A stretch of DNA of 63,514 nucleotides from the sequence record DRR723986_6594; one strand, 5' to 3'. Positions 3,377 through 25,682 of this stretch are shown in pieces (positions within the stretch are counted from its first letter, which is position 1; every line of letters begins with the position of its first letter). The notes beneath the pieces are model-generated. The model was given only the letters and a program-made list of their open reading frames with translations, had not been told where the DNA came from and ran no database searches. The translations under genes and the position numbers were made by a program.

Positions 3377-4732
3377 TTAATAGGCTTTATCTTCTCCTTT
3401 AAAAATATTGGTAAATGTCTGAAAAATAATTTTTAAATCTAACAGTAACGACCAATTCTCAATATAGAAAATGTCATATTTAACCCGACCAATAATATCT
3501 TTATCTGTTTCAACCTCTCCTCTAAAACCACTTGTTTGAGCTAATCCTGTAATCCCGGGTTTTACAAAATGACGTACCATAAATTTGTCAATACGTTTGG
3601 CATACATATCAGTATGACTTACCATATGTGGTCTTGGGCCAACTACTGACATACTACCAAATAATACATTAAAAAACTGCGGCAACTCATCAATACTGGT
3701 TTTTCTAATAAATTTACCTATTTTAGTTACCCTTTGATCATTTTTTGTAGCTTGATATAGGTGGGCTTTCTCATTTGGAGTCATTGATCGAAACTTATAA
3801 CAATCAAATTCCCTGTAATTAAAACCATTTCTTGATTGCTTAAAAAATACTGGCCCTTTAGACTCTAACTTTATCAATATAGCAATTAACGGTGTTAACC
3901 AAGATAGAATAAAAACAATAACTAAGATAGAAAATATAATATCAAAGCTACGTTTAATAATGGTGTTTACAGAATCTTCTAACGGAATTGTTCTTAAGGT
4001 TAGGATTGGAATGTAATCGTAATACTCATATCGAAGCCTTTTTGAATAAATCTCCCTGCTATCTGGTATAAACTTTAAAATCTTAAGGTTATTATCGGCA
4101 AAATCTACAATGTCTGCAATCTGAGAATTGGTGATTTCAGAGATAGAACAATATATCTCGTCTACTTTCTCATTCAAAATATATTCAAAACACTCATTAA
4201 GAGCATTCTCTTTATTATTAAAGTTAAAGGTCTTCTTATGTAAATAGCCATATTCAGGGTTTTTATTGAAAAAATTCTCTAAAGCTAATGTCTTTTTGTT
4301 TAAACCTACAATTACTGTTGACCTATAATTTCCACCAAATGAAACCCTATATTTCTGTAATAAATAATAAACTGTAAATTTTAAAATAGTTATGAATAAA
4401 AAGCATGCTAAAGTATATTTAACTATTGGTCTAGGATATATTTTCATCTCATGGTAAAGTCCAGAGAATGCAAATACAAAAAGTAAAAATAGAATTGATT
4501 GTTTTAATAATAGAGATAAAATATTTATTGGCCTTGTATACCTATATACCTCATAAAACTTAGAATAAACAGATAATAAAACCCATCCAATTGATATAAA
4601 TATTGCAAAAACAAGTAGGTCTTTAGCATGTAACAAATAAAGAATAGCCACAACATTAATGACACTTAAGTCAATTAAGTATGAAATAGGTCTTAAGTAG
4701 CCTGAATATCTTCCGTGTTTAAATAAGCTCAA
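3377..4732 (-). CDS. Undecaprenyl-phosphate glucose phosphotransferase (WcaJ-like priming transferase)
   Basis: N-terminal TM segments plus bacterial sugar transferase domain (KFRSM, SIDELPQFFNV, SVVGPRP, KPGITGLAQ, YIENWS). Confidence 0.9.
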   Translation of the reverse strand: MSLFKHGRYSGYLRPISYLIDLSVINVVAILYLLHAKDLLVFAIFISIGWVLLSVYSKFYEVYRYTRPINILSLLLKQSILFLLFVFAFSGLYHEMKIYPRPIVKYTLACFLFITILKFTVYYLLQKYRVSFGGNYRSTVIVGLNKKTLALENFFNKNPEYGYLHKKTFNFNNKENALNECFEYILNEKVDEIYCSISEITNSQIADIVDFADNNLKILKFIPDSREIYSKRLRYEYYDYIPILTLRTIPLEDSVNTIIKRSFDIIFSILVIVFILSWLTPLIAILIKLESKGPVFFKQSRNGFNYREFDCYKFRSMTPNEKAHLYQATKNDQRVTKIGKFIRKTSIDELPQFFNVLFGSMSVVGPRPHMVSHTDMYAKRIDKFMVRHFVKPGITGLAQTSGFRGEVETDKDIIGRVKYDIFYIENWSLLLDLKIIFQTFTNIFKGEDKAY

Positions 4733-5107
4733 ATTACTCTTCTATATTGAAATTAATCCATGTAAAACAGGAATTTAAGTTGATTTAATTTATAAACCAA
4801 AAAAGTGACTTTAATTCCTTAAAAAAAATAAAAACGCGATTTGCTTTACTTTGTGATATAAAAATACCCAATACTTTCTTTTAACGGTTCACCTATGACA
4901 TTTAATAACATAGAGTCTCTGAAATAATCTGCAATGACTAATATATATATTAAACGAGGAAGTCTATTTGCATCTTGTGGCAAGGCTAAAACTAAAAATA
5001 TTACAAAAACTCAAATCCTTTGCTAATGAGAGGTATTAAATTTTAATCCAAAAGCTTTAATATTTTACTCAAAAACAACACCTGAATTAGTATGTCTGCT
5101 TACATTA

Positions 5108-6379
5108 TTAGTAATTAGAGAGTTTTTTGGTTTTACTCTTTATTACTTCTTTTATTTTGGGAAAATCTGTTCTTTGAAATATGCAATTCATAACCACAAA
5201 CAAAAACACGCCTCTATGTACCCACAAAAAAGATTCAGTAATGAAAATCATTACCATTAAAAAATAAAACATGAGCATAAAAAAAGACTTTGCTTTAAAA
5301 GATTTCTTAAATCCTAGGCCTAAAATCACTAATAGTGTTAACAGCCCAAATATTCCTAACTCTGAAAGAATCTGAGCATACATATTATGATAATTATACC
5401 TATGATAACCATAATATGTGTTAAAAGCAAGGTGTCTTTTGCTTAAATTTTTTCTAGATGCAAATAAACCAAATCCTTTCCAAAAAATCCCATCTTCTTC
5501 AATTTGTTCTTTTAAATTTCTTAGTTGAAGTAACCTAATAGATGTTCCTGTCCATGGATAGACCCTATTAAACTTTTCTCTATTAATAACTTCTTCAAGA
5601 TTAGTCGTGGATTCAATAAGTATTCGGTTTACAATTTCACTAGACGCAAATGAAAGCACCACAATTGTAACTAAAAGCACTCCTATTGTTTTTTTAGATT
5701 TTAAAGCTCGTATCCCTTTATAAATAAAAAAGTATATAAGGTTCCCTAAAAGAAAAACAGCAATTGTGGATTTTGATGATAATAATAAAATAAGTACTCC
5801 TAAAAATAAAAGACCAAAATAATCAAAACGTTTTTTTATTTGTTTAGACAGTAAAAAGAAGTAGCTTAATGTATAAAACACCGAAACATAAATAGCATTA
5901 AGATCTAAAACCTGAACAAAATCATGGTATGTAAACACCGTCGCATTTCCATTCTTAAAATAGTTTACAAATGCCAGTACTAAGAAAAAGAAGCCTAATA
6001 AAATGTTAGATGTAGTAAATCCATTTAGAACAGTTTGAAATGATCTAAATGTAAATCTTGGAATAATACTGAATATTAGAGGTAATAACACAAACAAAAA
6101 AAGTCTTCCTAATCCTTTTAGTGTCAGTTCTTGGTCAACTGTCCAAAAATAAGATGCACAACACAACACATAAAGTAACATACATAGTGATAGTAAAGGT
6201 GTTAATTCAAACTTAATTTTGTTTTTTAATGCATATCGAATCGCAAACAAACAAAATAAAACCATGGCAATACTACTTGGCGCATAACCTACTAAAAGTG
6301 TTGAAAGTGTTAACGCAAGTAAGTAATTTAAAAAATCCTTGTGATTAACGACAGATTCTATTTTACTTTTTACATTCAT
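5108..6379 (-). CDS. O-antigen ligase / Wzy_C family membrane protein
   Basis: About 12 hydrophobic segments, LSSKS motif, periplasmic loop with SIRL and HNMYAQILSELGIFG. Confidence 0.78.
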   Translation of the reverse strand: MNVKSKIESVVNHKDFLNYLLALTLSTLLVGYAPSSIAMVLFCLFAIRYALKNKIKFELTPLLSLCMLLYVLCCASYFWTVDQELTLKGLGRLFLFVLLPLIFSIIPRFTFRSFQTVLNGFTTSNILLGFFFLVLAFVNYFKNGNATVFTYHDFVQVLDLNAIYVSVFYTLSYFFLLSKQIKKRFDYFGLLFLGVLILLLSSKSTIAVFLLGNLIYFFIYKGIRALKSKKTIGVLLVTIVVLSFASSEIVNRILIESTTNLEEVINREKFNRVYPWTGTSIRLLQLRNLKEQIEEDGIFWKGFGLFASRKNLSKRHLAFNTYYGYHRYNYHNMYAQILSELGIFGLLTLLVILGLGFKKSFKAKSFFMLMFYFLMVMIFITESFLWVHRGVFLFVVMNCIFQRTDFPKIKEVIKSKTKKLSNY

Positions 6380-7469
6380 AAAAAAAGTTTAAATATGCTT
6401 TATTTATAATATCCCAACTAAAATATTTCTCAATATCATTAAAACAGTTTTCAACCATATCTAAATGCTCTGTTTTAGAAAGATTATCTAAATATTCTTG
6501 AACCTCATTTACGGTTTTAAAATAAAAGGCGTTGTTTTTTAAAATTGACTTATTAAAATGATTATCATTGGCGATAATGAATGCTTTTGAAGACATCGCC
6601 TCTAGCAATGATGGATTTGTTCCTCCAACTGAGTGTCCATGAAAATATAAATTTGAATAATACCTTAGGTTATTGAGAGTGTTTAAATTGTATATCCCTC
6701 CAACAAAGTGAATATTTTTATGGTCTTTAAATTTATTTTTTAAGTATTTACCAAAGTTATTTACATCGTGTTTACCAACAACTAAAAATGGCGTCTTGTT
6801 TTTTGATGAAGCAACCCCATCCAAAATCGTTTCAATATTGTTTTCTGGCTCTAGACGAGCAATAAGCATATTGTATGTGTAAGGTTTTAAATTATATTCT
6901 AATAGAACCTTTGCATCAGGATTATTAAATTGCTCTGCTCCGTAAGCGATATATTTTGAATCGACTTCGTATGTTTTTGTTAAATAATCTTGAATTCCTA
7001 TAGAGTCGGCCACTAGGTAATCACTTGATTTAACTCCGAGTCTTTCGGCATATTTTAAAAACTTTTGAACTTTTTTAGAGTATTTTGAACGCTTCCATTC
7101 TAGCCCATCCATGTTAGTGATTACAGTCGCTTTTTTTGGTAGTAATTTATACCAAATGGTACTACTCGTGTAGCCTAATTGAAGCAAAATATCAAAGTTT
7201 CTTTTTCTTGAATCTAAAATGCAATTAAAGTCATAAACAAATTGGCCAGCTGTTCCAATTTTGTTTTCTAGGTCAATACAATGAATGATGTTTACTCCTT
7301 TAAAGTTTTTCTCTTTGTAAGGATGTGTGCTTGAATTATAAACGTAAACTTCATGGTTATGTTGAGCGAGATACACCGAAAAGAATTCGGCAAATTGTTC
7401 AAACCCTCCATGATAATTGGGAATACCTCTAGTTCCAAGAATTGCAATTTTCAATTTATTACTTGTCAT
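6363..7469 (-). CDS. GT4 glycosyltransferase with DUF1972 (rhamnosyltransferase-like)
   Basis: IAILGTRGIPNYHGGFE, NMDGLEWKRSK and HGHSVGGTNPSLLEAM motifs, typical of RgpA/WchF-like enzymes. Confidence 0.85.
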   Translation of the reverse strand: MTSNKLKIAILGTRGIPNYHGGFEQFAEFFSVYLAQHNHEVYVYNSSTHPYKEKNFKGVNIIHCIDLENKIGTAGQFVYDFNCILDSRKRNFDILLQLGYTSSTIWYKLLPKKATVITNMDGLEWKRSKYSKKVQKFLKYAERLGVKSSDYLVADSIGIQDYLTKTYEVDSKYIAYGAEQFNNPDAKVLLEYNLKPYTYNMLIARLEPENNIETILDGVASSKNKTPFLVVGKHDVNNFGKYLKNKFKDHKNIHFVGGIYNLNTLNNLRYYSNLYFHGHSVGGTNPSLLEAMSSKAFIIANDNHFNKSILKNNAFYFKTVNEVQEYLDNLSKTEHLDMVENCFNDIEKYFSWDIINKAYLNFFYECKK

Positions 7470-8586
7470 TCAATATTAAATTTAACAACCTGTTTGCCGT
7501 GTTCTCCCAATTATATTTTTCTCTGATTTTATCTGATACTTTTTTCAAAAAAACAGTGTCATTCTCTCTCTTAATTACCTCTTTAATCTTTAATCTTATA
7601 TTTTTCTCATCTCTTGCGTCAAATAAATTATCTTCAAAAAAACTAAAATCTTTCATTGCTGAAGAATTAGAACAGATTGTTGGGGTTTGTAAAGCGCCAC
7701 TCTCTATTGGAGGGATTCCAAATCCTTCACAGAGAGACGGAAAAATAGCAAGGCTTGCAGCATTATAAAAAACAACTAATTCATCGTTTGAAACATTATT
7801 GAATTCAATAACACCACCTTTAGATACAGAATTAACCTCTTCAATTAAACAATCCAATTTATTGTCCTTAAAACTTCGTTTACCGATTAAAACCAAATGA
7901 ATATTATTTTGCCAAAGTTTTAGTTTTTGATAAGCTTTAATCAATCTAAAATGATTTTTTCTTGGTTCAATTCTACTCACGTAAATAATAAATTCATCAA
8001 TACCATATTTCTTCTTAATATAATCCCTGTCATCTCTTTTATTACGTAAAACCTTGAAACTTTCACCTATCGCGTTAGGTAAAACAGTTATTTTTTTATT
8101 TCCAAGATTAAAATTTTCTTTAATTCTATCTGCAGAATATTTAGAAACTGTTGTTAAAAAATCAGCCTTACGTGCTGATCTTTTAAATAAAAAACTATTT
8201 ATTAGTCTATATTTAACTGGGAAATATTTTGGAAAGTCAATAAATAGAACATCGTGAATTGTGACTATATATTTACATTTTCTGTTCAAGAAAAAGGGTA
8301 AATAGTAATTAAAGTGTATATAGTCAAAACTATGTTCGGCTATAATTTTAGGAAGTTCATAGAGTAACCTAATATATTTGTTTCTAAATTTTAATTTAAT
8401 AAACTTAAAATTTGATTGGTCTTTGAATTCTTTTTTTAAATTGTCAATATTGTGGGACGCAAGGTAAATCATCAAATTGTTTGAACTATTAACTGCGTCG
8501 GTACCATAAATCCCCTTTAAAAAAGTTCTTATTCCTTGATGGTTTTCGTCAAATGTGTGGGCGTCCACAAGTAGTTTTAAAGGCAT
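7459..8586 (-). CDS. Glycosyltransferase family 4
   Basis: VTIHD, SRIEPRKN and PSLCEGFGIPPIE (EX7E) motifs. Confidence 0.9.
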   Translation of the reverse strand: MPLKLLVDAHTFDENHQGIRTFLKGIYGTDAVNSSNNLMIYLASHNIDNLKKEFKDQSNFKFIKLKFRNKYIRLLYELPKIIAEHSFDYIHFNYYLPFFLNRKCKYIVTIHDVLFIDFPKYFPVKYRLINSFLFKRSARKADFLTTVSKYSADRIKENFNLGNKKITVLPNAIGESFKVLRNKRDDRDYIKKKYGIDEFIIYVSRIEPRKNHFRLIKAYQKLKLWQNNIHLVLIGKRSFKDNKLDCLIEEVNSVSKGGVIEFNNVSNDELVVFYNAASLAIFPSLCEGFGIPPIESGALQTPTICSNSSAMKDFSFFEDNLFDARDEKNIRLKIKEVIKRENDTVFLKKVSDKIREKYNWENTANRLLNLILNDK

Positions 8587-8590
8587 GAAT

Positions 8591-9838
8591 TTATTTATTA
8601 TAATTAGGTGGTGCTATCTGATTTTTAAATTTATATATTGAAGCCACTAAAGCGCCATACAAAAAAATAGAAAATTCTCCGGGTCTAAAAATACCATTAA
8701 TAACAAAACTATTAACTAGCATATATAGACTTGATGCAATGATGAGTTTGTGCATAAGAGAAATGTTTCTGTCTTTTGTTAATATTTTTTGATGAGCAAA
8801 AAATATGTGAAAAATGAAAAAAACATAGCACATCAAACCCAAAATTCCCGATTTAAATAACACATTAATAAATCCATTGTGAATTGAAGGCACCTTTGTG
8901 AACTTTTTACCATCCAAATTTACATAAGTATCCAACTCAATTTGAGAGCCAAATCCCATCCCAATAATCCAAGCTTTAAATCCATTGCCGTTAACTTGAT
9001 CAATTGCTTTAATTGCTTCATAAGCTCTCCAATGCTCCCACAAAACCCTTCTATCTTTTAAAATGTTTTTGGTGTCAATCGGTTCAAATAACTCTGTAAG
9101 GCTATTCTGGGTTTTATATATAAATGCTTTTAACCCTTTTGAATCTCTATTAGTTTCAATATTTGTAACTATAAATCCAAATGTGGCTATGGTTAAAGCA
9201 AAAGCAAATATAGCTTTGATAAAGCGCTTGTTTAAAAATAAATACCCTTTGTAGCCTAAAAAGTAAATAAACAAAATTATAAACATAGTCCTTGATAAAT
9301 AAAGGACGAAAGAAACCAATAAAACAAATATGATTAATTTTCTATATCTAGTAAATACAGTAACGTATGGAGTGAACCAAAGAAACACGAGAGCTATCGC
9401 TTCGATGTGGTTTTGTTTACCCCCTAAATTTCTTAAATAAATATATGAGTTTATATTATTAATGTTAATTATTATTTTAAATAAATGATTGACAGCAAAA
9501 AATAATGCCACAATAACAAGAGCATTAAAAACATAATTTTTAGTCTTTATTCTTTTAACGGAAAAATATGTTGCAGTTAATATGGTTACTGGTCTAATAA
9601 AATAAATATTATCCTTAAGAAATTCATAAAATGAGTGTTTTAGTTCGTAACTCGAAATAATTCCTATAAACACTATGCTCAAAAGTAAAAGGGAGGATAT
9701 AAGTATGTTAAAAGAGACTGTTTTGGTAATGGATATTAATAATATGAGCACTGAGACCACAAAAGATAATTCAATTGAGTAAAAAGACAAAACAAATATT
9801 AATAGTAATAATGCTGCTTTAAGAATTAACTGAGGCAT
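8591..9838 (-). CDS. Wzy-like polysaccharide polymerase / O-antigen ligase-like membrane protein
   Basis: Polytopic protein with LSRT, G-x-GFG and HNGFINVLFKSGILG motifs, inside the glycan locus. Confidence 0.7.
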   Translation of the reverse strand: MPQLILKAALLLLIFVLSFYSIELSFVVSVLILLISITKTVSFNILISSLLLLSIVFIGIISSYELKHSFYEFLKDNIYFIRPVTILTATYFSVKRIKTKNYVFNALVIVALFFAVNHLFKIIININNINSYIYLRNLGGKQNHIEAIALVFLWFTPYVTVFTRYRKLIIFVLLVSFVLYLSRTMFIILFIYFLGYKGYLFLNKRFIKAIFAFALTIATFGFIVTNIETNRDSKGLKAFIYKTQNSLTELFEPIDTKNILKDRRVLWEHWRAYEAIKAIDQVNGNGFKAWIIGMGFGSQIELDTYVNLDGKKFTKVPSIHNGFINVLFKSGILGLMCYVFFIFHIFFAHQKILTKDRNISLMHKLIIASSLYMLVNSFVINGIFRPGEFSIFLYGALVASIYKFKNQIAPPNYNK

Positions 9839-9889
9839 TTTCTGTTTTTTTATTAATATCTTTCAGATTTTTAATTAATGTTTTAATCC

Positions 9890-10531
9890 ATGAGAATATC
9901 TCACAAAAATAAGTTTATATTTTTTAGCAATCCCAAAACAGGGTCTGAAAGTTTGAGAGAAATGTTGACACCTTACTCTGACATTTTAGATGTTACGTAT
10001 AAAGAGACGACTAAAGAAAACCCCTTTTATTCTCATATAAGCCCATTAGAAGTAAAGAAAATATTTACTGATAAGGGGTTAGACTTTGATGAATATTACA
10101 AAATTGTTTGTACTAGAAACCCATTTAATAGATTAGTGTCTCTGTATGAAATGATTTTTAGAAAATGGCCTGTTAAACCTCCTTTTGACATTTGGCTAAA
10201 ATCTACCAGGACAAAAGGTAAGGGTGGTGGTGGAAAAAACTATGATCGATGGAGAATGTATGGCACTTATTCCTTAAAAAATTATGTTAGTGATGACGAT
10301 GGAATTATTCTTGTTGATAAAATTATTTGCTTAGAAAATTTTAATGAAGAAATCCCTAAACTTTTTGAAGCCTTAAATATTGATTTGCCTACAGATTTTG
10401 AAGTGGTAAAAAAAAATGTTAGAAAAAGGAAAAAAAGTGTGGTCGATTATTATTCAGAAAAGTCAAAAAAAATAATATATAAAAGGTATAAATGGGAGCT
10501 TGAAGAATTTAATTATAGTTTTCCAGAATAG
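9890..10531 (+). CDS. Sulfotransferase (Sulfotransfer_2 / HNK-1-like family)
   Basis: 5'-PSB motif PKTGSESL and 3'-PB motif RNPFNRLVSLY; typical ISHKNKFIF N-terminus. Confidence 0.82.
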   Translation: MRISHKNKFIFFSNPKTGSESLREMLTPYSDILDVTYKETTKENPFYSHISPLEVKKIFTDKGLDFDEYYKIVCTRNPFNRLVSLYEMIFRKWPVKPPFDIWLKSTRTKGKGGGGKNYDRWRMYGTYSLKNYVSDDDGIILVDKIICLENFNEEIPKLFEALNIDLPTDFEVVKKNVRKRKKSVVDYYSEKSKKIIYKRYKWELEEFNYSFPE

Positions 10532-10539
10532 TCTTAAAA

Positions 10540-11454: not shown

Positions 11455-11465
11455 TCATATTCGCG

Positions 11466-12831: not shown

Positions 12832-13368
12832 CTATTCTCTTTCTAATTGATTTATTAGACTGTTTTTTAGTCTAATTGTTGGGTTGAGTTTACCTTGTAT
12901 TCTTTTTGTAGAAATAACGTTAGATGTAGAGTCTCTAATAATAAATTTATTAAACACTAAATTAGAATTTAAGTCTTCAGGACTTATTAAATTAAATTGT
13001 TTGTCTCCATAAGAAACAATAATACTTTTAATAATGACTTCCTTTTCATTATTGTTTCCTAAGGAAATAACTATTTGTTTTGAGAGATTGTCTGGGTCAA
13101 ATTTAGCAATGATATAATCATCATTACTTGATGGCTCAACATTCTCAGATATATGAATATGTTTTTTTTGTAATTCATCCACCTCTATGTTATTCATCAT
13201 TATTTTAAAAACGTCTGATTTATTTGTTCTATAAATAAACTCGAGTTTTAGGCTTTTTTTCAACAGACTATCAGTATTAATTTCAGAAAGACTAGAGTGT
13301 TTCTTTTCTGACTTATTACACGAAATACTAATGATAGCGAAAGTTATTATTGTGATTAATTTTCTCAT
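12832..13368 (-). CDS. Hypothetical lipoprotein
   Basis: SpII-like signal MRKLITIITFAIISIS-C followed by a hydrophilic domain. Confidence 0.65.
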   Translation of the reverse strand: MRKLITIITFAIISISCNKSEKKHSSLSEINTDSLLKKSLKLEFIYRTNKSDVFKIMMNNIEVDELQKKHIHISENVEPSSNDDYIIAKFDPDNLSKQIVISLGNNNEKEVIIKSIIVSYGDKQFNLISPEDLNSNLVFNKFIIRDSTSNVISTKRIQGKLNPTIRLKNSLINQLERE

Positions 13369-13381
13369 TTAATTTTGTTCT

Positions 13382-14635: not shown

Positions 14636-14645
14636 GTGGTTTTAT

Positions 14646-15551: not shown

Positions 15552-15552
15552 T

Positions 15553-16146: not shown

Positions 16147-16603
16147 GCTTTTTTATTTTTCCCAAAAAGTATTGTCTTACCCTCCCTAAAGGAAGTTTTA
16201 GCCATAACCTTTCATGGACGTAGTATAATACGAATTTCGTAAAAAATTCTGTTAAGGCAATATATAAGGCTATTTGATCAAATACCTCCAGCACGGACCC
16301 AGTAATAATAAATGTCATTGTTGTAGCTACAATTCTCCATGAAATCGATTTTTGAAGTGTTCTTGTCTCTTCAGATCTTCTCTTTATAAGAATTGATTGC
16401 CAAATTCTTTCGTGAAAATAATAGACAATATATTTAAACAGAAATTCAATCGCACCAATTTTAAGAGCATTTTCTATACTACATTCACCAGTCAAGCAAG
16501 TCACTAGAAGCACAACAAGTATAGTGTCTGTCGTAGCAACAATTCTCCATGAAACACCTTTTAGTAAACTCCTAATGTGAGATTCCTTTTTGTATGCCGT
16601 CAT
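16139..16603 (-). CDS. Tandem DUF2061 membrane protein
   Basis: Two repeats: RSLLKGVSWRIVATT...YYFHERIW and RTLQKSISWRIVATT...YYVHERLW. Confidence 0.8.
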   Translation of the reverse strand: MTAYKKESHIRSLLKGVSWRIVATTDTILVVLLVTCLTGECSIENALKIGAIEFLFKYIVYYFHERIWQSILIKRRSEETRTLQKSISWRIVATTMTFIITGSVLEVFDQIALYIALTEFFTKFVLYYVHERLWLKLPLGRVRQYFLGKIKKHD

Positions 16604-16611
16604 TGCGTAGT

Positions 16612-17421
16612 TTATTGTTTAGAAACTACAAACCAGGGGTTTAGTAGATTTTGTTTATTATATAAAAGTGATTCTTTTGTGTCTTCTGAAATAACGTCTA
16701 TTCCAACTGCATTACAAATTGCTTGTCCTGCGGCAGTGTCCCATTCCATAGTGGGTGCAAATCTAGGGTAAATATCTGCATTACCTTCCGCAACCAGGCA
16801 AAACTTTAAAGAGCTACCTTTTGACACTATTGAAACTACATTACCTAATTGTTCTAGGTGTGTTATGAAGTCTAATGTCTCTGGACTCATGTGTGATCTA
16901 CTTCCCACAATCTCTAGGTGTTTTGTTTTAACTTTGGGTGTTAGTGGTATTGCACTTTTAACAACTTCTGTAATTTTAATACTATGCTCTAATAAGACAG
17001 ATTTAAATGCCTTTTGTTTTAGTGTATCTGCAAAATAAATGGTTTTAGTGTCAGGAACATATATAACACCTAGCACGGGCTTACCCTCATTTATAAGTGC
17101 AATATTAACAGTAAATTCGCCATTCCTCTTTATAAACTCTTTCGTTCCATCAACAGGATCTACAATCCAACATCTTTCCCATTGCCTTCTTGTGCCAAAA
17201 TCAATTTGTTTATTTTCTTCACTAATTATAGGAATTAATGTAGGCTTTAAATATGTATTAATAATCTCATTTGCCCTTTTATCTGCTTCGGTCAAGGGTG
17301 ATTCGTCGTCTTTAAATTCCACTTGAAAAGTAGTGTTGTAAACCTCCATAATGGCTTCACCTGCTCTTAGACTAGCTTGAATTGCTATTTCAAGATTTTT
17401 AGTTAGCTCTATACCAGTCAT
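16612..17421 (-). CDS. cysQ: 3'(2'),5'-bisphosphate nucleotidase
   Basis: KDDESPLTEAD, ISEE, VDPVDGTKEF, GSSLKFC and WDTAAG motifs. Confidence 0.95.
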   Translation of the reverse strand: MTGIELTKNLEIAIQASLRAGEAIMEVYNTTFQVEFKDDESPLTEADKRANEIINTYLKPTLIPIISEENKQIDFGTRRQWERCWIVDPVDGTKEFIKRNGEFTVNIALINEGKPVLGVIYVPDTKTIYFADTLKQKAFKSVLLEHSIKITEVVKSAIPLTPKVKTKHLEIVGSRSHMSPETLDFITHLEQLGNVVSIVSKGSSLKFCLVAEGNADIYPRFAPTMEWDTAAGQAICNAVGIDVISEDTKESLLYNKQNLLNPWFVVSKQ

Positions 17422-18445
17422 ACATTTCTTTTATTCCGTTTTCCAGATTCATGCGATGTTTCCAACCTAACGCATTTAACTTTGATACATCGGTAAGTTT
17501 ACGCAATGTACCATCTGGTTTATCTGTATTAAAGAATAATTCTCCTTTAAACCCAATAATCTCCTTAATAAGCTCAGCTAATTGCTTTATTGATATGTCC
17601 TCTCCTGTTCCTAAATTAATATGCGTATTTCTAACTTCTATATCGTCCTTAGAAAAAGTATCATTAAAATTTCGATTTTCCATTAGAAATACACAAGCGT
17701 CAGCCATATCCTTTGACCAGAGAAACTCTCGCCTTGGTTTACCTGTTCCCCATATCTCTACACCATTTGCTAATATTCCAAATTTAGATAAATACTTTTC
17801 TACCTCTTCCTTGTTACTTACATTAATATCACTCATCAAAGCATTCCAGTTATTTTCACTTTTTAACTTTGCTAGATGAATCTTTCTAATTAGCGCTGGT
17901 AATACATGTGATTTTTCTAAATCAAAATTATCATTTGGGCCATAAAGATTAGTTGGCATTACTGAAATATAATTTGTACCATACTGCAGATTATAACTTT
18001 CACACATTTTGATTCCAGCAATCTTAGCGATTGCATAAGGTTCATTAGTATATTCTAAAGTATTTGTCAACAGAAATTCTTCCTTCATGGGTTGTGGAGA
18101 ATCTTTTGGATAAATACAGGTGCTTCCTAAGAACAATAATTTTTTTACTCCACTTAAATAACTTTGATGAATAACATTGTTTTGTATCATTAAGTTGTCA
18201 TAAATAAACTCTGCTCTATATGTATTATTTGCAACTATACCTCCCACCTTGGCGGCAGCTAAAAACACATAATTTGGTTGTTCTTTTTGAAAAAAAGTTG
18301 CAACTTCATTTTGGTTCGTAAGGTCTAACTCCTTATGGGTTCTAGTAACAATATTATTATAGCCTTTTTGTTGAAGATTTTCTAATAACGCACTACCTAC
18401 CAATCCTCGATGACCAGCAATATATATTTTTGATGCCTTGTCCAT
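17399..18445 (-). CDS. fcl: GDP-L-fucose synthase
   Basis: AGHRGLVGSA, LAAAKVGGI, YAIAK, PTNLYGPNDNF and KPDG motifs. Confidence 0.95.
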   Translation of the reverse strand: MDKASKIYIAGHRGLVGSALLENLQQKGYNNIVTRTHKELDLTNQNEVATFFQKEQPNYVFLAAAKVGGIVANNTYRAEFIYDNLMIQNNVIHQSYLSGVKKLLFLGSTCIYPKDSPQPMKEEFLLTNTLEYTNEPYAIAKIAGIKMCESYNLQYGTNYISVMPTNLYGPNDNFDLEKSHVLPALIRKIHLAKLKSENNWNALMSDINVSNKEEVEKYLSKFGILANGVEIWGTGKPRREFLWSKDMADACVFLMENRNFNDTFSKDDIEVRNTHINLGTGEDISIKQLAELIKEIIGFKGELFFNTDKPDGTLRKLTDVSKLNALGWKHRMNLENGIKEMYDWYRAN

Positions 18446-18453
18446 ATTGTGAT

Positions 18454-19572
18454 TTACTCAAAGTAATTCTTAATTCTGTAGCCCCCTTCTTTTAGATATT
18501 GTTTTTTCTGCATAAGTTTAATATCGCTTTTCATCATGTCTTCTACTAAAGCTGGCAAATCATACTTTGGAACCCAGCCTAATTTATCTTTTGCTTTTGT
18601 GGCATCACCAATTAATAAATCAACCTCAGTCGGTCGATAGTATTTTTTATCTACTGCGACTACTTCTTTACCAATTTTTAGTTGATAATCTGGATTATTG
18701 CATGATTTTACGTAGCCTTTCTCATCACTATCTTTCCCTTTAAACTCTAATTCTACTCCAACATGATTGAAACACATTTTAACAAAATCTCTTACTGTTG
18801 TTGTTTTTCCGGTAGCAATAACCCAATCTTCAGGCTCCTCAGCTTGTAAAATCATCCACATCATTCTTATATAATCCTTTGCATGTCCCCAGTCTCTTTG
18901 AGCATTCAGATTACCTAGGTAGATTTTATCTTGCAAACCTAGAGCTATTTTAGATGTTGCTCGTGTAATTTTCCTAGTTACAAACGTTTCTCCTCTAATC
19001 GGTGATTCGTGGTTAAATAAAATACCATTACAAGCAAACATACCATACGCTTCTCTGTAGTTAACAGTAATCCAATAGGCATATATTTTTGCAACTGCAT
19101 AAGGGCTTCTTGGATAGAATGGCGTTGTCTCTGTTTGTGGTACTTCTTGTACTTTTCCGTATAATTCTGAAGTGGAAGCTTGATAAATTCTTGTTGTTTT
19201 CTCTAGCCCAAGGATTCTAACTGCTTCCAATAATCGTAACGTGCCAATACCATCTGCATTAGCAGTATATTCTGGCATTTCAAAAGAAACATGCACATGA
19301 CTCATTGCTGCCAGATTATATATTTCATCCGGTTTAATATCCTGAATTATTCTTATTAGATTTGTGCTGTCGGTTAAATCACCATAATGAAGAAAAAAGT
19401 TTTGATTTTCTGTATGTGGGTCTTGATATAAATGATCTATTCTATCAGTATTAAAAAGAGAAGATCTTCTTTTTACACCATGAACTATATATCCCTTCTT
19501 TAATAAAAATTCACTTAAGTAAGCTCCATCCTGACCAGTCACTCCCGTTATTAAAGCTGTTTTCTGTTGCAT
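18454..19572 (-). CDS. gmd: GDP-mannose 4,6-dehydratase
   Basis: [33 protein letters not shown] and FNHESP motifs. Confidence 0.98.
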
Positions 19573-19575
19573 ATA

Positions 19576-20442
19576 TTAGTTGCTAATGTTATTAAAATTA
19601 TTTAATGCTGTTTTTAAGCTATCCCGCCAGTAAGGTATTTCAATATCCATTACCGTTTTAATTTTTGACTTATCTAAAACACTAAAATAAGGTCTTTTGG
19701 CTAAAGTTGGATAGTCTTTTGTTGTAATTGGTAAAACCTTCAAATCTATTTGGTTATATTCAAAAATCTCCTTAGCAAAATCATACCAGCTCGCAACACC
19801 TTCATTACTAAAATGATATAATCCATAATTTTTATTTTGAATTATTATTGTTTTAATAATCAAATTAGCTAAGTCTTTAGCGTAAGTTGGTGTGCCTATT
19901 TGGTCAGCAACCACTCCAATTTCTTTTTTAGATTTAGATAAAAAGAGCATTGTCTTCATAAAGTTGGAATTATATTCTGAATATAACCATGAGGTTCTAA
20001 ATATAAAGTACTTCTTTAAGATTTGCTGTATAGCTTTTTCTCCATTTAGCTTTGTTTTTCCATAGACACTTATTGGATTTGTGGTATCCTTCTCTGAATA
20101 AGGAAAAGACTGTTGCCCATCAAACACAAAATCTGTTGAAATGTGTATTAAAGTTGTGTCTGAAATTTTACACGCTCTGGCAAGATTTTGAACTCCAGTC
20201 TCATTTACGGCTCTTGCAATACTAATTTCTTTTTCTGCATTATCCACTGCCGTATAAGCAGCACAATTAATACAATACTGAAATTTTTGATTTGAAAAAT
20301 ATTGTTCTAATGCTTCTGCATTTAGAATATCTAAAGTCTCCAAATCCGTAAATACAAAATTTAGATTTGAATAGTCTTTTATTAAGTCTTTAACGTTATT
20401 TGCCAGTTGTCCTTCACCACCTGTTACCAGAATATTTGTCAT
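19576..20442 (-). CDS. rfbD: dTDP-4-dehydrorhamnose reductase
   Basis: VTGGEGQL, NCAAYTAVD, HISTDFVFDG, YGKTK and DQIGTPT motifs. Confidence 0.95.
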   Translation of the reverse strand: MTNILVTGGEGQLANNVKDLIKDYSNLNFVFTDLETLDILNAEALEQYFSNQKFQYCINCAAYTAVDNAEKEISIARAVNETGVQNLARACKISDTTLIHISTDFVFDGQQSFPYSEKDTTNPISVYGKTKLNGEKAIQQILKKYFIFRTSWLYSEYNSNFMKTMLFLSKSKKEIGVVADQIGTPTYAKDLANLIIKTIIIQNKNYGLYHFSNEGVASWYDFAKEIFEYNQIDLKVLPITTKDYPTLAKRPYFSVLDKSKIKTVMDIEIPYWRDSLKTALNNFNNISN

Positions 20443-20984
20443 AAATTGGACTTGTTTAATTTTGGCAAAATTAAATCCTTTTCTGAAATTATAAGTTCCT
20501 TTTCAGGTATTTGCCAGTCGATGCCCAATTGAAGGTCGTTATAAATAATTCCATCTTCGGATTCTTTATTATAATAGTTATCGCATTTATATGAAAAAAT
20601 TGCTGTTTCAGATAAAACTACAAACCCATGAGCAAATCCTCTCGGTACGAATAATTGTTTTTTGTTTATTTCTGATAGTTCAACAGAAATATGCTGACCG
20701 TAAGTGGGTGAGCTTTTTCTGAGGTCTATAGCCACATCTAAAACTTTTCCTTTTATAACTCTAACTAATTTTGCTTGAGCATATTCTCCTTTTTGGTAAT
20801 GTAATCCTCTTAACACCCCTCTTGAAGAAAAAGACTCATTGTCTTGAACAAAATTTACATTAATACCTAAGGCGGTATTAAATCCAATTTGATTAAATGA
20901 TTCAAAAAAATAACCTCTATTGTCAGAAAATACAGTAGGTTGTAGAATAAAACAGCCTTTTAGTTTGGTCTCTACTATTTTCAT
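20439..20984 (-). CDS. rfbC: dTDP-4-dehydrorhamnose 3,5-epimerase
   Basis: [14 protein letters not shown] and PRGFAHGF motifs. Confidence 0.96.
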
Positions 20985-21850
20985 TTTTTACTATTCAATA
21001 ATCCAAGTAAGTTTTTTCCGTAGCCACTTTTCATTAGCGAATCAGCTAAAGATCGAAATTGATGTTCGTCAATAAAGTTCATCTCAAATGCCGCAGCTTC
21101 AATCGAGCCTATTTTTAGACCTTGTCTGTTTTCAATTACTTCAACGAACTGGGACGCCTGCAATAATGAGTCAAAAGTCCCTGTATCTAACCATGCCGTG
21201 CCTCTGTCTAAAATACTGACACTTAATTTTCCTTTTTTAAGATACTCTTTGTTTATGTCCGTAATTTCTAATTCTCCTCTCTCACTTGGTTTTATATTAC
21301 TAGCTATTTCGACAACATCATTGTCGTAAAAATAGATTCCCGGAACGGCAAAATTTGATTTAGGGTTTTTTGGTTTTTCTTCTATTGATATTGCTTGACC
21401 TTGCGAATTAAACTCAACTACACCGTACCGCTCTGGGTCGTGAACTCTGTAGGCATAAATAATACCACCTCTTGGATTATTATTACTTTGCAATAAAGAT
21501 GCTAAACCAGAACCGTAGAATATATTATCCCCAAGAATAAGCGCTACTTTGTCTTTACCGATAAATTTCTTGCCAATAATAAATGCTTCCGCAAGACCAT
21601 TTGGAGCCTCCTGAATTGCATATGTGAATTTACATCCATACTTGTTTCCATCGCCTAATAGGTCCTTAAATAAGGGCAAATCTTTTGGAGTAGAAATAAT
21701 TAATATTTCACTAATACCGGAATACATAAGTGTTGATAAAGGATAATAAATCATTGGCTTATCATAAATAGGCATTAACTGCTTACTTATAGTTAGTGTT
21801 AAAGGATGTAATCTTGTGCCAGATCCACCGGCTAATATTATGCCTTTCAT
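20981..21850 (-). CDS. rfbA: Glucose-1-phosphate thymidylyltransferase
   Basis: [36 protein letters not shown] and WLDTGT motifs. Confidence 0.97.
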
Positions 21851-21853
21851 TTT

Positions 21854-22915
21854 TTAGCTATATTGACTCTTATAATAAGACTGATAAACTCCACTGGTTA
21901 CATGCTCTAACCATTCTGTATTTTCTAAATACCAATCAATTGTAATACTCAGTCCTTGCTCAAATGTTACTGATGGTTGCCACCCGAGCTTATTTTTTAT
22001 TTTAGAAGCATCTATTGCGTATCTTAAATCGTGCCCTGGTCTGTCTTTAACAAACGAAATAAGTTTTTCAGAACTACCTTTTTCTCTTGCTAACTTCAGG
22101 TCCATTAGTTGACAAAGAAGTTTAACTAAATCAATATTCTTCCATTCATTAAAACCGCCTATGTTATATGTTTCCCCTAATATTCCATTGTGAAATGCAA
22201 CATCTATTGCTATTGCATGATCTTTAACATAGAGCCAATCTCTGGTATAATTACCGTCTCCATACACAGGAAGCGATTTATTATTAATAATATTGTTAAT
22301 GAAAAGTGGTATTAATTTTTCTGGAAATTGATTTTGACCATAATTATTTGAGCAATTACTTATAACGTAGGGCATATTATAAGTCTCACCATACGCTCTA
22401 ACAAAATGATCAGAACTGGCTTTTGACGCCGAATAAGGGGAGTTTGGATCGTAAGAAGTTATTTCAGTAAATAGCCCATCTTCACCTAATGTTCCATACA
22501 CCTCGTCTGTACTTACATGATAAAACAATTTATTTTCAAAATTATTGATCCAACAATTTTTGAAGGCATTTAATAAAACTACTGTTCCTATTACATTTGT
22601 CTTAACAAATGATAAAGGGTCACTTATTGAGCGATCAACATGTGATTCAGCAGCTAAATGAATAACCGAATCAAATCTATGTTTTTGAAACAAATCATTA
22701 ATTCCCTTCTCATCACTGATATCTAATTTTATAAAAAAATAATTAGGCTTATCTTCAACGTCTTTTAAATTTTCTAAATTCCCTGCATAGGTTAAACTGT
22801 CTACATTATAAATGTCATAATTAGGATATTTATTTAAAAAAAGGCGCACTACATGCGAGCCAATAAATCCAGCACCTCCAGTAATTAAAACTTTACGTTT
22901 ATTATCATTACTCAT
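21854..22915 (-). CDS. rfbB: dTDP-glucose 4,6-dehydratase
   Basis: TGGAGFIGS, HLAAESHVDRSI, STDEVYG, YSASK and DRPGHD motifs. Confidence 0.97.
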   Translation of the reverse strand: MSNDNKRKVLITGGAGFIGSHVVRLFLNKYPNYDIYNVDSLTYAGNLENLKDVEDKPNYFFIKLDISDEKGINDLFQKHRFDSVIHLAAESHVDRSISDPLSFVKTNVIGTVVLLNAFKNCWINNFENKLFYHVSTDEVYGTLGEDGLFTEITSYDPNSPYSASKASSDHFVRAYGETYNMPYVISNCSNNYGQNQFPEKLIPLFINNIINNKSLPVYGDGNYTRDWLYVKDHAIAIDVAFHNGILGETYNIGGFNEWKNIDLVKLLCQLMDLKLAREKGSSEKLISFVKDRPGHDLRYAIDASKIKNKLGWQPSVTFEQGLSITIDWYLENTEWLEHVTSGVYQSYYKSQYS

Positions 22916-23960
22916 AATTCTTTATGTAGTTAAATATACTTAGTAGGATATAAACATATGCTAATATAGCAATTGATAATGCTGGTATAACAAATATGTA
23001 TGTTGAGAAATATGACGTTTCTATAGTACCAACCTCTTCAAAACGAGATAATATATCAAAGTAATCACTTTCTTCAATTAGGGTTTCGTCAAGACTTCTT
23101 ATTTTTTCCCTAATCTTTAATTCTTCTTGAAACAAATCATATTCTCTAGTTTTTGTTCTTTCCTGCATAATTGGAAGAAAACTATTTGGACTTACAGTAG
23201 AACCACCGTTCTCAGACTCCATTTTCATTATTTGCAGATACGTTTGTTGAAGACTATCAATTTTTTCTAACTCTTTATTGTAAGCGGCTCTTTTAACTAA
23301 TAATGATGAATCTCGAATTTTTTTGAGTTTTACAGAATAATCATTCTCAAAGGTATTTTCAAACCCTTTTTCTAGGCTTTGAAATACGTCAACCTTGTAA
23401 GATTTGGCTTTAATTGAAAAAATATTGCCCTCAAGAATATCTCTATTTAGAACATAATCATCAAAAGTCACATCATCAGCTAAGATACTATCAATTGAAC
23501 TTATATATTCGTCATATTCAATCAACAAATCATTTTGGGTCTCAGGACCTATTTCAATTTCAAAGCTTATCAACTCTTTCGCCTCTGAAGTATCAATTTC
23601 AAAAATCCTTGCTAATTCTGGTAAATTTTCTGAGTCTATCAAAGCATTAAAATAATCAACATTATTTGCTAATTCATACTTTGAGTCAAAGTAAGGTTTA
23701 ACCAACATATCTGAATAATATACCGTATCCTTTAATTTGTCGGAGACAAAACCAATAATACCTGCAATCATAACTATAATTGAAATTAATTTAAAGTTAT
23801 TAACTACAGGTTTTAGTGCATAAATAATAGCGCTAAAAATAGCTTTAAAAATTCGTCCAATAAACGCAAATAATTTTTCGAAAAGTCTTCCTATAGCATT
23901 AAATAACTGCCCTAAATCGACTTCTTCACTTTGAGATTGCTGTGGTAACTTTTCACTCAT
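22908..23960 (-). CDS. Wzz-like chain-length determinant (putative)
   Basis: N-terminal EEVDLGQLF, two terminal TM helices around a coiled-coil-rich periplasmic region, directly upstream of rfbB. Confidence 0.6.
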   Translation of the reverse strand: MSEKLPQQSQSEEVDLGQLFNAIGRLFEKLFAFIGRIFKAIFSAIIYALKPVVNNFKLISIIVMIAGIIGFVSDKLKDTVYYSDMLVKPYFDSKYELANNVDYFNALIDSENLPELARIFEIDTSEAKELISFEIEIGPETQNDLLIEYDEYISSIDSILADDVTFDDYVLNRDILEGNIFSIKAKSYKVDVFQSLEKGFENTFENDYSVKLKKIRDSSLLVKRAAYNKELEKIDSLQQTYLQIMKMESENGGSTVSPNSFLPIMQERTKTREYDLFQEELKIREKIRSLDETLIEESDYFDILSRFEEVGTIETSYFSTYIFVIPALSIAILAYVYILLSIFNYIKNYE

Positions 23961-25679: not shown

Positions 25680-25682
25680 GCT

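Follow-up and report, generated by a model that had tools for sequence, protein, structure and literature searches.

A surface-glycan cluster that contains PAPS synthesis genes

We scanned the 58 open reading frames (ORFs) of a 63.5-kb stretch of DNA (the window) against Pfam and NCBIfam. A surface-glycan cluster extends from position 23960 to position 2593, on the minus strand apart from a single gene, ST2, which is on the plus strand. The genes overlap or are separated by 1 to 52 bases; the sole larger gap, of 375 bases, is at positions 4733-5107. In cluster order, with bit scores, the genes are as follows.

22908..23960, minus: 350-aa Wzz-like protein with two transmembrane segments; first gene of the conserved arm
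21854-22915, minus: rfbB (TIGR01181, 455 bits, above cut-off)
20981-21850, minus: rfbA (TIGR01207, 453 bits, above cut-off)
20439-20984, minus: rfbC (TIGR01221, 245 bits, above cut-off)
19576-20442, minus: rfbD (TIGR01214, 311 bits, above cut-off)
18454-19572, minus: gmd (TIGR01472, 605.5 bits; cut-off, 415)
17399-18445, minus: fcl (NF047922, 457 bits, below the cut-off of 500; also Pfam Epimerase)
16612-17421, minus: cysQ, 3'(2'),5'-bisphosphate nucleotidase that removes PAP (TIGR01331, 266.7 bits; cut-off, 228.8)
16139-16603, minus: DUF2061 small membrane protein (PF09834, 101.6 bits, two repeats)
15553-16146, minus: cysC, APS kinase that makes PAPS (TIGR00455, 253.7 bits; cut-off, 138.7)
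14646-15551, minus: cysD, ATP sulfurylase (TIGR02039, 410.5 bits; cut-off, 396.6)
13382-14635, minus: cysN, ATP sulfurylase (TIGR02034, 554.5 bits; cut-off, 336.1)
12832-13368, minus: 178-aa lipoprotein-like ORF
11466-12779, minus: wzx flippase (Polysacc_synt PF01943, 48.6 bits; cut-off, 28.2; also MatE)
10540-11454, minus: ST1 (Sulfotransfer_1/3), predicted PAPS-dependent sulfotransferase (PF00685, 75.9 bits; PF13469, 59.6 bits)
9890-10531, plus: ST2 (Sulfotransfer_2), predicted PAPS-dependent sulfotransferase (PF03567, 34.4 bits; cut-off, 22)
8591-9838, minus: Wzy_C protein B, polymerase or ligase (PF04932, 24.8 bits, under the cut-off of 31.7; E = 2e-5)
7459-8586, minus: GT4 glycosyltransferase (Pfam)
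6363-7469, minus: DUF1972/GT1 glycosyltransferase resembling the rhamnosyltransferase Cps2T (Pfam; NF046071, 205 bits, far below the cut-off of 500)
5108-6379, minus: Wzy_C protein A, polymerase or ligase (PF04932, 47.3 bits, over the cut-off of 31.7)
3377-4732, minus: WcaJ-type undecaprenyl-phosphate glucose-1-phosphate transferase (priming) (TIGR03023, 418.6 bits; cut-off, 410.75)
2593-3372, minus: TuaG-like GT2 glycosyltransferase; last gene of the cluster (PF00535, 129.3 bits; NF047683, 242 bits, below the cut-off of 400)

All the gene classes named in an earlier, sequence-only reading were recovered at the positions it gave, using the ORFs, Pfam, and NCBIfam. That reading was right about the content of the cluster and wrong about its left edge: the GT2 gene lies beyond the limit that had been set, 4 bases past the WcaJ gene. 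At the right edge we correct it, since the 350-aa ORF has no family hit and is weakly Wzz-like, and between cysN and wzx we add the lipoprotein-like ORF.

Sugar-nucleotide genes and a probable co-polymerase

By NCBIfam equivalogs, rfbB-rfbA-rfbC-rfbD (19576..22915) is a set for dTDP-L-rhamnose synthesis; by NCBIfam and Pfam, gmd-fcl (17399..19572) is a pair for GDP-L-fucose synthesis. Upstream of both lies the gene for the 350-aa protein, for which we found nothing at threshold in Pfam or NCBIfam. A weak Wzz match was observed (E = 0.94), and the closest named Atlas clusters were Wzz (0.91 and 0.90). The AF2 model of this protein (pLDDT, 66.9) has N- and C-terminal helices around an alpha/beta base and a long helical hairpin. 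Its top Foldseek matches were all Wzc, KpsE, or Wzz co-polymerases, yet with E values of at least 6e-3 and TM scores of ~0.3. The gene is kept at the same position in related loci (L001, L004, L008, and others). We conclude from these weak signals of sequence and model that it probably encodes a Wzz-like polysaccharide co-polymerase.

The cys block resembles a PAPS donor cassette

The cysQ, cysC, cysD, and cysN genes are in one operon, in which genes adjoin or overlap. The DUF2061 gene overlaps cysC by 8 bases; an Atlas search with its product yielded nothing further. The 178-aa ORF product (12832..13368) begins with what looks like a lipoprotein signal that ends in Cys. This ORF had no family match in Pfam or NCBIfam, and homologues with 28-47% identity occupy the same spot after cysN in L103, L116, L122, L125, and L135. 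The sequence-only reading had noted that cysH, cysIJ, and cysK are missing from the cluster. This was borne out and extends to the whole window: cysH, sulfite reductase, and cysK are absent from all 58 ORFs, and nowhere in the window is there an assimilatory operon, i.e., cysH and sulfite reductase with cobA/cysG beside cysDN.

We compared the block with 98 CysD copies from 101 Flavobacteriaceae species genomes. A copy was scored as cysC linked if it was ≤3 kb from cysC and as sir linked if it was ≤6 kb from a sulfite-reductase-type NIR_SIR gene. The cysC-linked copies numbered 46 and the sir-linked copies 41; none was both, and 11 were neither. Of the 46 cysC-linked blocks in the same sample, 39 had a DUF2061 gene detectable by BLAST between cysQ and cysC. 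Nine genomes had both kinds of CysD, at separate loci. In all nine, the assimilatory copy was in an Rrf2-cysH-cysD-cysN-sir-cobA-(cysG)-TrxR-like operon without cysC, and the other copy was in a cysQ-(DUF2061)-cysC-cysD-cysN block. CysD of the window is 67-95% identical to the cysC-linked copies of these nine genomes versus 57-60% to the assimilatory copies. In a CysD tree, all 35 cysC-linked sequences, including that of the window, formed one clade, and the 9 sir-linked sequences fell apart from it (support, 0.994). By sequence and position, the cysC-linked and sulfite-reductase-linked cysDN genes are separate paralogues in Flavobacteriaceae and never share a locus.

Sulfotransferase genes near these blocks were sought with two custom profiles in a 10-kb radius. 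At least one was detected for 25 of the 46 cysC-linked blocks versus 0 of 9 sir-linked operons. The genomes of five relatives had 21 sulfotransferase matches, of which 8 were ≤10 kb from the block, compared with ~0.13 expected from its share of the genome. The paralogue split, the CysD clade, and the sulfotransferase linkage strongly support the proposal, already made in the sequence-only reading, that the cys block is a sulfate-donor cassette. On this comparative evidence, its assignment as a PAPS donor cassette rather than an assimilation pathway is well supported.

We considered whether the block might instead be the entry to sulfate assimilation, or serve both purposes, with APS or PAPS passing to a cysH product encoded elsewhere and the sulfotransferases as minor users. 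A cysH-like gene of the Fe-S, APS-reductase-like type, with CC and CxxC Fe-S motifs, stands alone in two of the closest relatives, G001 and G002 (PRK02090, 204-208 bits, over cut-off); therefore, CysDN may have a second, reductive outlet. Against this, none of the 46 cysC-linked cysD copies is near a sulfite reductase gene, NIR_SIR had no match in any of the closest relatives (G001-G004), and in G003, whose CysD is nearest to that of the window, cysH was likewise unmatched. The assimilatory operons of the family lack cysC and contain a cysDN paralogue of their own, and a route through APS reductase needs neither cysQ nor cysC. Moreover, an APS kinase over cut-off is missing from 29 of the 60 genomes that have both CysD and NIR_SIR, and therefore assimilation in Flavobacteriaceae does not need PAPS. 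Conversely, 26 of 86 CysD-positive genomes lack a NIR_SIR match, and 23 of these 26 have cysC. We regard an assimilatory or dual role as improbable.

The orphan APS reductase could also be fed by CysDN to provide sulfite for cysteate and a sulfonolipid (capnine), which would then be the main sulfur product. Cysteate synthase uses sulfite, and the relatives with orphan cysH lack sulfite reductase. Sulfonolipids and cysteate synthase are reported from Bacteroidota (PMC11211663, PMC11525784). However, the cysteate synthase model TIGR03844 had no match in any of five relatives' genomes, and such a route leaves cysC, cysQ, and the adjacent sulfotransferases unexplained. This explanation strikes us as highly improbable, and we retain that of a PAPS donor cassette.

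Two predicted sulfotransferases in the variable arm

ST1 matched a bacterial sulfotransferase in the PDB (3rnl; E = 6e-36) and, weakly, heparan sulfate 3-O-sulfotransferases. Its sequence contains a GTT loop and the stretch RHPxDRxxS. For ST2 there were 253 homologues at E ≤ 1e-5, mostly of 213 aa, and the motifs PKTGS and RNPxxRxxS were invariant in 26 sequences. We take these pairs of motifs to be the 5'-phosphosulfate- and 3'-phosphate-binding motifs. The AF2 model of ST2 (pLDDT, 95.3) found only PAPS sulfotransferases among the Foldseek matches listed (best E value, 1.2e-3; probability up to 1.00). We conclude that, as judged from sequence and model, both proteins keep the PAPS-binding motifs and that ST2 has a sulfotransferase fold. 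Gene context points to a carbohydrate as the acceptor, which is not readable from sequence or fold.

A different acceptor is conceivable: the PAPS cassette and ST1/ST2 might sulfate a lipid or a sterol-like or other small molecule, as for BT_0411-0416 of Bacteroides, with the glycan genes as mere neighbors. The closest solved folds to ST2 are mostly cytosolic small-molecule sulfotransferases, the steroid and phenol types being best, and Bacteroidota offer a precedent in which the PAPS genes Bt_0411-0415 adjoin the cholesterol sulfotransferase gene BT_0416 (PMC9417993). In addition, the two custom profiles detected no sulfotransferase within 10 kb of 21 of the 46 cysC-linked blocks. Not every species, therefore, couples the cassette to an adjacent sulfotransferase. 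The cassette probably also serves sulfotransferases encoded elsewhere in the genome. However, ST1 and ST2 are within the variable arm, between wzx and the Wzy_C and glycosyltransferase genes, and sulfotransferase genes co-vary with this arm across three related loci. The variable arm of the window recurs in L135, where ST2 is again on the opposite strand; the layout common to L001 and L130 is wzx, sulfotransferase, Wzy_C, DUF1972-glycosyltransferase, Wzy_C, sulfotransferase. The ST1 matches to heparan sulfate 3-O-sulfotransferases also argue against a nonglycan acceptor, as do clusters of like composition whose products are solved sulfated capsules (PMC11641403, PMC11766843). On balance, we consider a nonglycan acceptor rather unlikely and favor a surface glycan.

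Proposed assembly of a sulfated repeat unit

The variable arm has a lower GC content than the conserved arm. Two features of an O-antigen-type locus, a priming glycosylphosphotransferase and a Wzx flippase, are present. Wzy_C proteins A and B showed no pairwise similarity except for a short HN...G motif. A scan of all 58 window ORFs turned up no Wza (Poly_export) or Wzc-type export gene, as in group-1-type capsules; such genes may be encoded elsewhere in the genome. With these genes missing from the window and a weak Wzz call, the product could be either LPS or capsule.

As predicted from its genes, the conserved arm (Wzz-like gene, rfbBACD, gmd-fcl, and cysQ-DUF2061-cysC-cysD-cysN) would supply dTDP-rhamnose, GDP-fucose, and PAPS, and the variable arm (wzx, two sulfotransferase genes, three glycosyltransferase genes, two Wzy_C genes, and the WcaJ gene) would be strain variable and build the repeat unit. 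With PAPS genes of its own and two sulfotransferases in a surface-sugar cluster, the organism probably makes a sulfated surface polysaccharide. We think it likely that the cluster is a Wzx/Wzy-type, O-antigen-like surface-polysaccharide locus of a marine Winogradskyella-like flavobacterium, in which the PAPS cassette and ST1/ST2 serve to sulfate the repeat unit. Its gene content makes a sulfated glycan with rhamnose or fucose a plausible product.

In the mechanism that we propose, WcaJ would load glucose-1-phosphate onto undecaprenyl phosphate, and the DUF1972, GT4, and GT2 glycosyltransferases would lengthen the chain by adding rhamnose and perhaps fucose. CysDN would provide APS, from which CysC would make PAPS. 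ST1 and ST2 have no signal peptides; as soluble proteins, they would act in the cytoplasm, adding sulfate to the lipid-linked unit, and CysQ would remove the by-product PAP. Wzx would then flip the sulfated unit across the membrane, where one Wzy_C protein would polymerize it; the other may be a ligase or a second polymerase. The gene identities, the paralogue type of cysDN, and the linkage of that paralogue to sulfotransferase and glycan genes across the family come directly from the data; we infer the acceptor, which sugar receives sulfate, the sequence of steps, and whether LPS or capsule is the final carrier. Metatranscriptome contigs from 4 runs of 3 studies, ≥95% alike, span ST1, ST2, wzx, cysN-cysD, and rfb genes. 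They may stem from carried-over DNA and are a weak hint that the locus is expressed.

Relation to known sulfation systems

Rhizobial NodPQ/NodH and LpsS are a case of duplicated ATP sulfurylase and APS kinase devoted to sulfation of surface or signal glycans, not to assimilation. There, sulfate goes to a lipo-chitooligosaccharide or to LPS, the bacteria are Alphaproteobacteria, CysN and CysC are fused (NodQ), and the genes are not known to be part of a Wzx/Wzy locus.

The combination of PAPS genes and sulfotransferase genes in a polysaccharide cluster, which the locus in the window has, is described as a hallmark of sulfated polysaccharide synthesis by the authors of PMC11641403. For Vibrio sp. 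KMM 8419 and Cobetia marina KMM 1449, the sulfated, rhamnose-containing capsules have been solved and linked to clusters with cysDNC(Q) and sulfotransferase genes (PMC11641403, PMC11766843). The Cobetia product is a polymer containing rhamnose-2-sulfate (PMC11766843), and the cys genes of the Vibrio cluster are second copies beside a housekeeping set (PMC11641403). Both clusters resemble the locus in the window in having dTDP-rhamnose genes, cysD, cysN, cysC (and cysQ in Cobetia), and sulfotransferase genes. They differ in being gammaproteobacterial, with ABC-transporter (KpsMTED) export, about 70-80 genes, fused CysN/C, and, in Cobetia, a sulfate permease; the locus described here is flavobacterial and Wzx/Wzy type, its cysN and cysC are separate genes, and it has a DUF2061 gene but no permease.

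Bt_0411-0416 of B. thetaiotaomicron, from the same phylum, likewise has a PAPS set beside a PAPS-dependent sulfotransferase gene, but its sulfotransferase acts on cholesterol or other sterols, and genes for glycan assembly do not accompany the set in the available part of that account (PMC9417993). B. thetaiotaomicron lacks a sulfite reductase: as our control genome, it had no NIR_SIR match. The Synechan (xss) system of Synechocystis PCC 6803 also combines Wzx/Wzy-type genes with dedicated sulfotransferases, although it is cyanobacterial; its sulfated polymer has been proven genetically (PMC8205485).

We found no flavobacterial case of PAPS genes and sulfotransferases in a polysaccharide cluster in the literature. 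Nevertheless, the statement in the sequence-only reading that few such bacterial pathways are characterized was too strong, given the Vibrio and Cobetia precedents (PMC11641403, PMC11766843) and a layout that is common in Flavobacteriaceae. The arrangement is neither rare nor new in kind, having been described in other marine bacteria.

Tentatively, we propose that many marine Flavobacteriaceae also produce sulfated surface glycans. A dedicated PAPS paralogue set (cysQ-DUF2061-cysC-cysD-cysN) would be kept by about half of the species sampled, in the conserved arm of an O-antigen-like locus, with serotype-like exchange of sulfotransferases in the variable arm. The DUF2061 protein would be an as yet unrecognized membrane component of bacterial sulfate activation, acting, for example, in sulfate entry or membrane tethering. 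Marine members of the family are best known for consuming sulfated glycans of algae.

Gene content of the glycan locus

The window is a flavobacterial chromosome segment of low GC content (about 31%), and the nearest relatives of its CysD are found in an Algicola MAG (95%) and in Winogradskyella genomes (93%). By scanning ORFs with family profiles, we found that the glycan genes form a near-gapless minus-strand array from 23960 down to 2593; the rest of the window holds housekeeping genes (purD, pgk, gidA, gltX, glnS, and a gldL-like gene).

Table. Genes of the glycan locus (window position, strand, gene or product, profile result)
22908-23960, minus, 350-aa protein with two TM segments; no family match
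19576-22915, minus, rfbB, rfbA, rfbC, and rfbD; above NCBIfam curated cut-offs
17399-19572, minus, gmd (above NCBIfam cut-off) and fcl (457 bits, below the cut-off of 500)
16612-17421, minus, cysQ; above NCBIfam curated cut-off
16139-16603, minus, DUF2061, small membrane protein
15553-16146, minus, cysC; above NCBIfam curated cut-off
14646-15551, minus, cysD; above NCBIfam curated cut-off
13382-14635, minus, cysN; above NCBIfam curated cut-off
12832-13368, minus, lipoprotein-like ORF, 178 aa; no family match
11466-12779, minus, wzx
10540-11454, minus, predicted sulfotransferase ST1 (Sulfotransfer_1/3)
9890-10531, plus, predicted sulfotransferase ST2 (Sulfotransfer_2)
8591-9838, minus, Wzy_C protein B; 24.8 bits, below the cut-off of 31.7
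7459-8586, minus, GT4
6363-7469, minus, DUF1972 glycosyltransferase, Cps2T-like
5108-6379, minus, Wzy_C protein A
3377-4732, minus, WcaJ-type priming transferase; above NCBIfam curated cut-off
2593-3372, minus, GT2

The gene content claimed in the sequence-only reading was borne out with three small corrections: the cluster extends beyond the range given there to the GT2 gene, the ORF at its right edge (22908-23960) belongs to no family, and an extra ORF without a family (12832-13368) lies between cysN and wzx. The same reading had noted that the cluster lacks cysH, cysIJ, and cysK, and this absence extends to all 58 window ORFs scanned, none of which encodes CysH, a sulfite reductase, or a cysteine synthase. 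GC content is 27 to 30% in the wzx-to-WcaJ part versus 33 to 35% in the rfb-to-cys part, and a drop of this kind usually marks a strain-variable arm. Scans for sigma-70 promoters (57 promoter-like sites versus 73.6 expected) and terminators (4 terminator-like sites versus 4.3 expected) were uninformative.

Convergent to the GT2 gene, with a 17-base overlap, is a plus-strand gene (1302-2609) for a PaaK/CoF390-synthetase-like adenylating enzyme. All its NCBIfam matches were far under the cut-off, and it has a weak homologue in the variable arm of a relative's locus (L016); the enzyme might acylate the glycan. Just upstream (23964-27185) lie genes for DUF6909 (563 aa) and for an OlsH-like member of the GH3 family (400 bits; cut-off, 620); both are syntenic with the glycan locus in relatives' loci L001, L008, L105, L124, L128, and L135.

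Two cysDN paralogues in Flavobacteriaceae

CysD, NIR_SIR, APS kinase, and CysH were sought in the genomes of 101 Flavobacteriaceae species, sampled evenly, and the positions of the matches were cross-tabulated. For NIR_SIR, we counted first-domain matches scoring 111 bits or more (66 matches) and excluded NirB-like rows of ~840 aa and second-domain rows. CysD was present in 86 of the genomes, in 98 copies. Forty-six copies lay within 3 kb of cysC and 41 within 6 kb of a sulfite-reductase-type gene; not one of the 98 was near both, and the 11 that were near neither include several at contig ends.

Both kinds occur together, one copy each, in nine genomes, giving 18 loci for comparison. In all nine, the assimilatory copy lies in the array Rrf2-cysH-cysD-cysN-sir-cobA-(cysG)-TrxR-like and the cysC-linked copy in the array cysQ-(DUF2061)-cysC-cysD-cysN. 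The window CysD is 57 to 60% identical to the assimilatory copies of these genomes and 67 to 95% identical to the cysC-linked copies. A FastTree phylogeny of 44 CysD sequences placed all 35 cysC-linked sequences, including that of the window, in one clade (support, 0.994; stem branch, 0.39). APS kinase over the cut-off was missing from 29 of the 60 genomes that have CysD and NIR_SIR, and NIR_SIR was missing from 26 of the 86 CysD-positive genomes, with cysC present in 23 of those 26. Together, the linkage split, the operon layouts, the CysD tree, and the gene counts argue that sulfate assimilation in Flavobacteriaceae does not pass through PAPS and that the cysC-linked cysDN set is a lineage separate from the assimilatory set. 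The cys block had been read as a sulfate-donor cassette, and these two points are the strongest support for that role. The split between an assimilatory and a PAPS paralogue also provides a practical annotation rule for the family. One genome of the family (G048) has two tandem cysQ-cysC-cysD-cysN blocks ~9 kb apart in a single glycan region (contig C34; L120 and L121).

The separate assimilatory set, for which the sequence-only reading had proposed a search of the genome, was sought in relatives. In Winogradskyella pacifica (G005), a complete cysH-sir-cobA-cysG set lies on one contig and a cysC-linked block, inside a glycan locus (L038), on another. Four close relatives (G001 to G004) gave no NIR_SIR match, and in G003, the nearest relative by the CysD tree, PAPS_reduct matched nothing besides CysD. 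A stand-alone cysH-like gene lies between sucC and uvrB in Winogradskyella aurantia (G002; L081:7511-8212) and in G001 (L082:7958-8659), scoring 204 to 208 bits with PRK02090. It belongs to a lower-scoring cysH group (187 to 214 bits) that accounts for 12 of the 16 genomes, among the 101 of the family, with a match over the PRK02090 cut-off. Both orphan proteins bear CC and CxxC motifs, which characterize Fe-S APS reductases. TIGR03844, a model for cysteate synthase of the archaeal type, had no match in any of five relatives' genomes, and a sulfonolipid outlet for CysDN thus gained no support.

Sulfotransferase and glycan genes around the cassette

Of 80 Bacteroidota loci that surround close relatives of the window CysD, 70 have cysC adjoining cysD, and in many the flanks hold rfb, gmd/fcl, or wzx. 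We detected sulfotransferases with two custom profiles that may miss other sulfotransferase families, so that the counts are lower bounds: at least 17 of these 80 loci and, in the unbiased family sample, at least 25 of 46 cysC-linked loci have a sulfotransferase (within 10 kb in the family sample, 38 ORFs in all). Glycan genes were detectable by BLAST at 33 of the 46. No sulfotransferase was found near the nine assimilatory loci, where shorter stretches (9 to 12 kb) were covered. The 28 closest loci gave 188 candidate ORFs, of which the first 94 (L001 to L015) were checked with Pfam and the other 94 by the custom profiles only. Pfam confirmed sulfotransferases in L001, L002, L006, L008, L009, L010, and L011 and found none among the tested ORFs of L004, L005, L007, and L012 to L015.

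In five relatives' genomes (15.6 Mb), 8 of 21 Sulfotransfer_1/2 matches lay within 10 kb of the cassette, versus ~0.13 expected by genome share. Since the other 13 lie away from it, the cassette probably serves several loci. Three of these, all Sulfotransfer_1 genes, are clustered in W. aurantia (G002, C14:295780-307296), likely as a second sulfated-product locus. At L008, which comes from W. aurantia WNB302, one sulfotransferase gene adjoins the cassette.

The conserved arm of the window (M23, GH3, DUF6909, the 350-aa protein, rfbBACD, gmd-fcl in some, and the cys block) recurs in L001, L004, and L008, and these loci diverge directly after cysN. L135 repeats the variable arm, with Wzy_C protein B (55% identity), opposite-strand ST2, ST1, wzx (61%), and the lipoprotein (42%). 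In L135 (6185-9527) and L086 (5814-9566), the PAPS block is interrupted between cysD and cysN by a module of three genes, GT2, a PMT_2-type GT-C glycosyltransferase (~610 aa), and a small ORF, which looks like a periplasmic glycan-modification (Gtr/Arn-like) set.

The two predicted sulfotransferases

ST1 aligns with a bacterial sulfotransferase of known structure (3rnl; E = 6e-36) and has weak matches to heparan sulfate 3-O-sulfotransferases. The family of ST2 comprises at least 253 proteins, nearly uniform in length, from marine Flavobacteriaceae and some cyanobacteria; its motifs PKTGS and RNPxxRxxS are invariant among the 26 sequences compared. A search of ST2 against PDB sequences returned nothing useful. 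Its structure model is confident (pLDDT, 95.3), and among the Foldseek matches listed, all were PAPS sulfotransferases, with a best E value of only 1.2e-3. ST2 is the only opposite-strand gene inside the cluster; since the gene is inverted in L135 too, this orientation is inherited and not an assembly quirk.

As read from sequence, ST1 and ST2 both lack signal peptides and membrane segments, which suggests that the lipid-linked unit would be sulfated in the cytoplasm before Wzx acts. From the gene context, we infer that the glycan is the acceptor. Alternatively, ST1 and ST2 could act on nonglycan acceptors: the Bacteroides Bt_0411-0416 set illustrates the donor-cassette idea inside the Bacteroidota, with a sterol as acceptor (PMC9417993). 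ST1 and ST2 are candidates for enzymatic sulfation of deoxyhexose polymers.

Assembly of the glycan

The WcaJ-type primer, Wzx, and the two Wzy_C proteins point to a Wzx/Wzy route. Searches against PDB sequences gave nothing useful for Wzy_C protein A and one chance-level match for protein B, and pairwise comparison of the two showed no real similarity. The 350-aa protein, in which membrane helices at both termini enclose an alpha/beta-plus-hairpin domain, is a probable Wzz-like protein. Its top Foldseek rows were all polysaccharide co-polymerases, a weak lead with none at E ≤ 0.001; Atlas scores of 0.90 to 0.91 and a Pfam Wzz match with an E value of 0.94 agreed with these rows. No Wza or Wzc was found in the window, and we lean toward an O-antigen-like product.

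The DUF2061 membrane protein gene, between cysQ and cysC, overlaps cysC by 8 bases. DUF2061 is detectable in 39 of the 46 cysC-linked blocks of the family sample, and an Atlas search with it returned DUF2061 clusters only. The lipoprotein-like ORF directly after cysN has homologues in the same place (28 to 47% identity) in L103, L116, L122, L125, and L135.

Related systems and environmental occurrence

The closest described systems are the clusters for sulfated capsules in Cobetia marina KMM 1449 and Vibrio sp. KMM 8419. The Cobetia cluster contains cysNC, cysD, cysQ, rhamnose genes, and genes for a permease and a sulfotransferase, and the polymer made bears rhamnose 2-sulfate (PMC11766843); that of Vibrio has second copies of cysN, cysD, and cysC and three sulfotransferases (PMC11641403). 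Their authors regard PAPS genes plus sulfotransferases in a polysaccharide cluster as marking sulfated polysaccharide synthesis (PMC11766843, PMC11641403). Both systems export the polymer through an ABC transporter and occur in another phylum. A microbial-mat survey reports that no sulfotransferase was found in its Bacteroidetes genomes (PMC9723792). In the literature searched, which excluded subscription journals, we found no flavobacterial sulfated glycan or genes for one and nothing on Winogradskyella with a sulfotransferase. Searches on Zobellia sulfotransferases and flavobacterial sulfated EPS gave no biosynthesis pathway among the matches listed, and passages of one paper on flavobacterial O-specific polysaccharides name no sulfated flavobacterial glycan.

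We conclude that the locus noticed from sequence is real and largely rightly interpreted and that it belongs to an already described kind of system, common in Flavobacteriaceae. If the glycan is sulfated, this family, which has a central part in turning over the sulfated polysaccharides of algae, would also be a source of sulfated glycans in marine organic matter, and the cell surface might resemble the bacterium's food; such a resemblance, if true, would matter for recognition by phages and grazers and for the ecology of sulfatases.

Metatranscriptome contigs from four runs in three studies span the junction of cysN and cysD and also cover ST1, ST2, wzx, and the rfb genes; they may stem from DNA carry-over. 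The stretch itself was found, at 66 to 81% of sampled words, in 13 DNA metagenome runs from seven studies of marine, seawater, and estuary samples.
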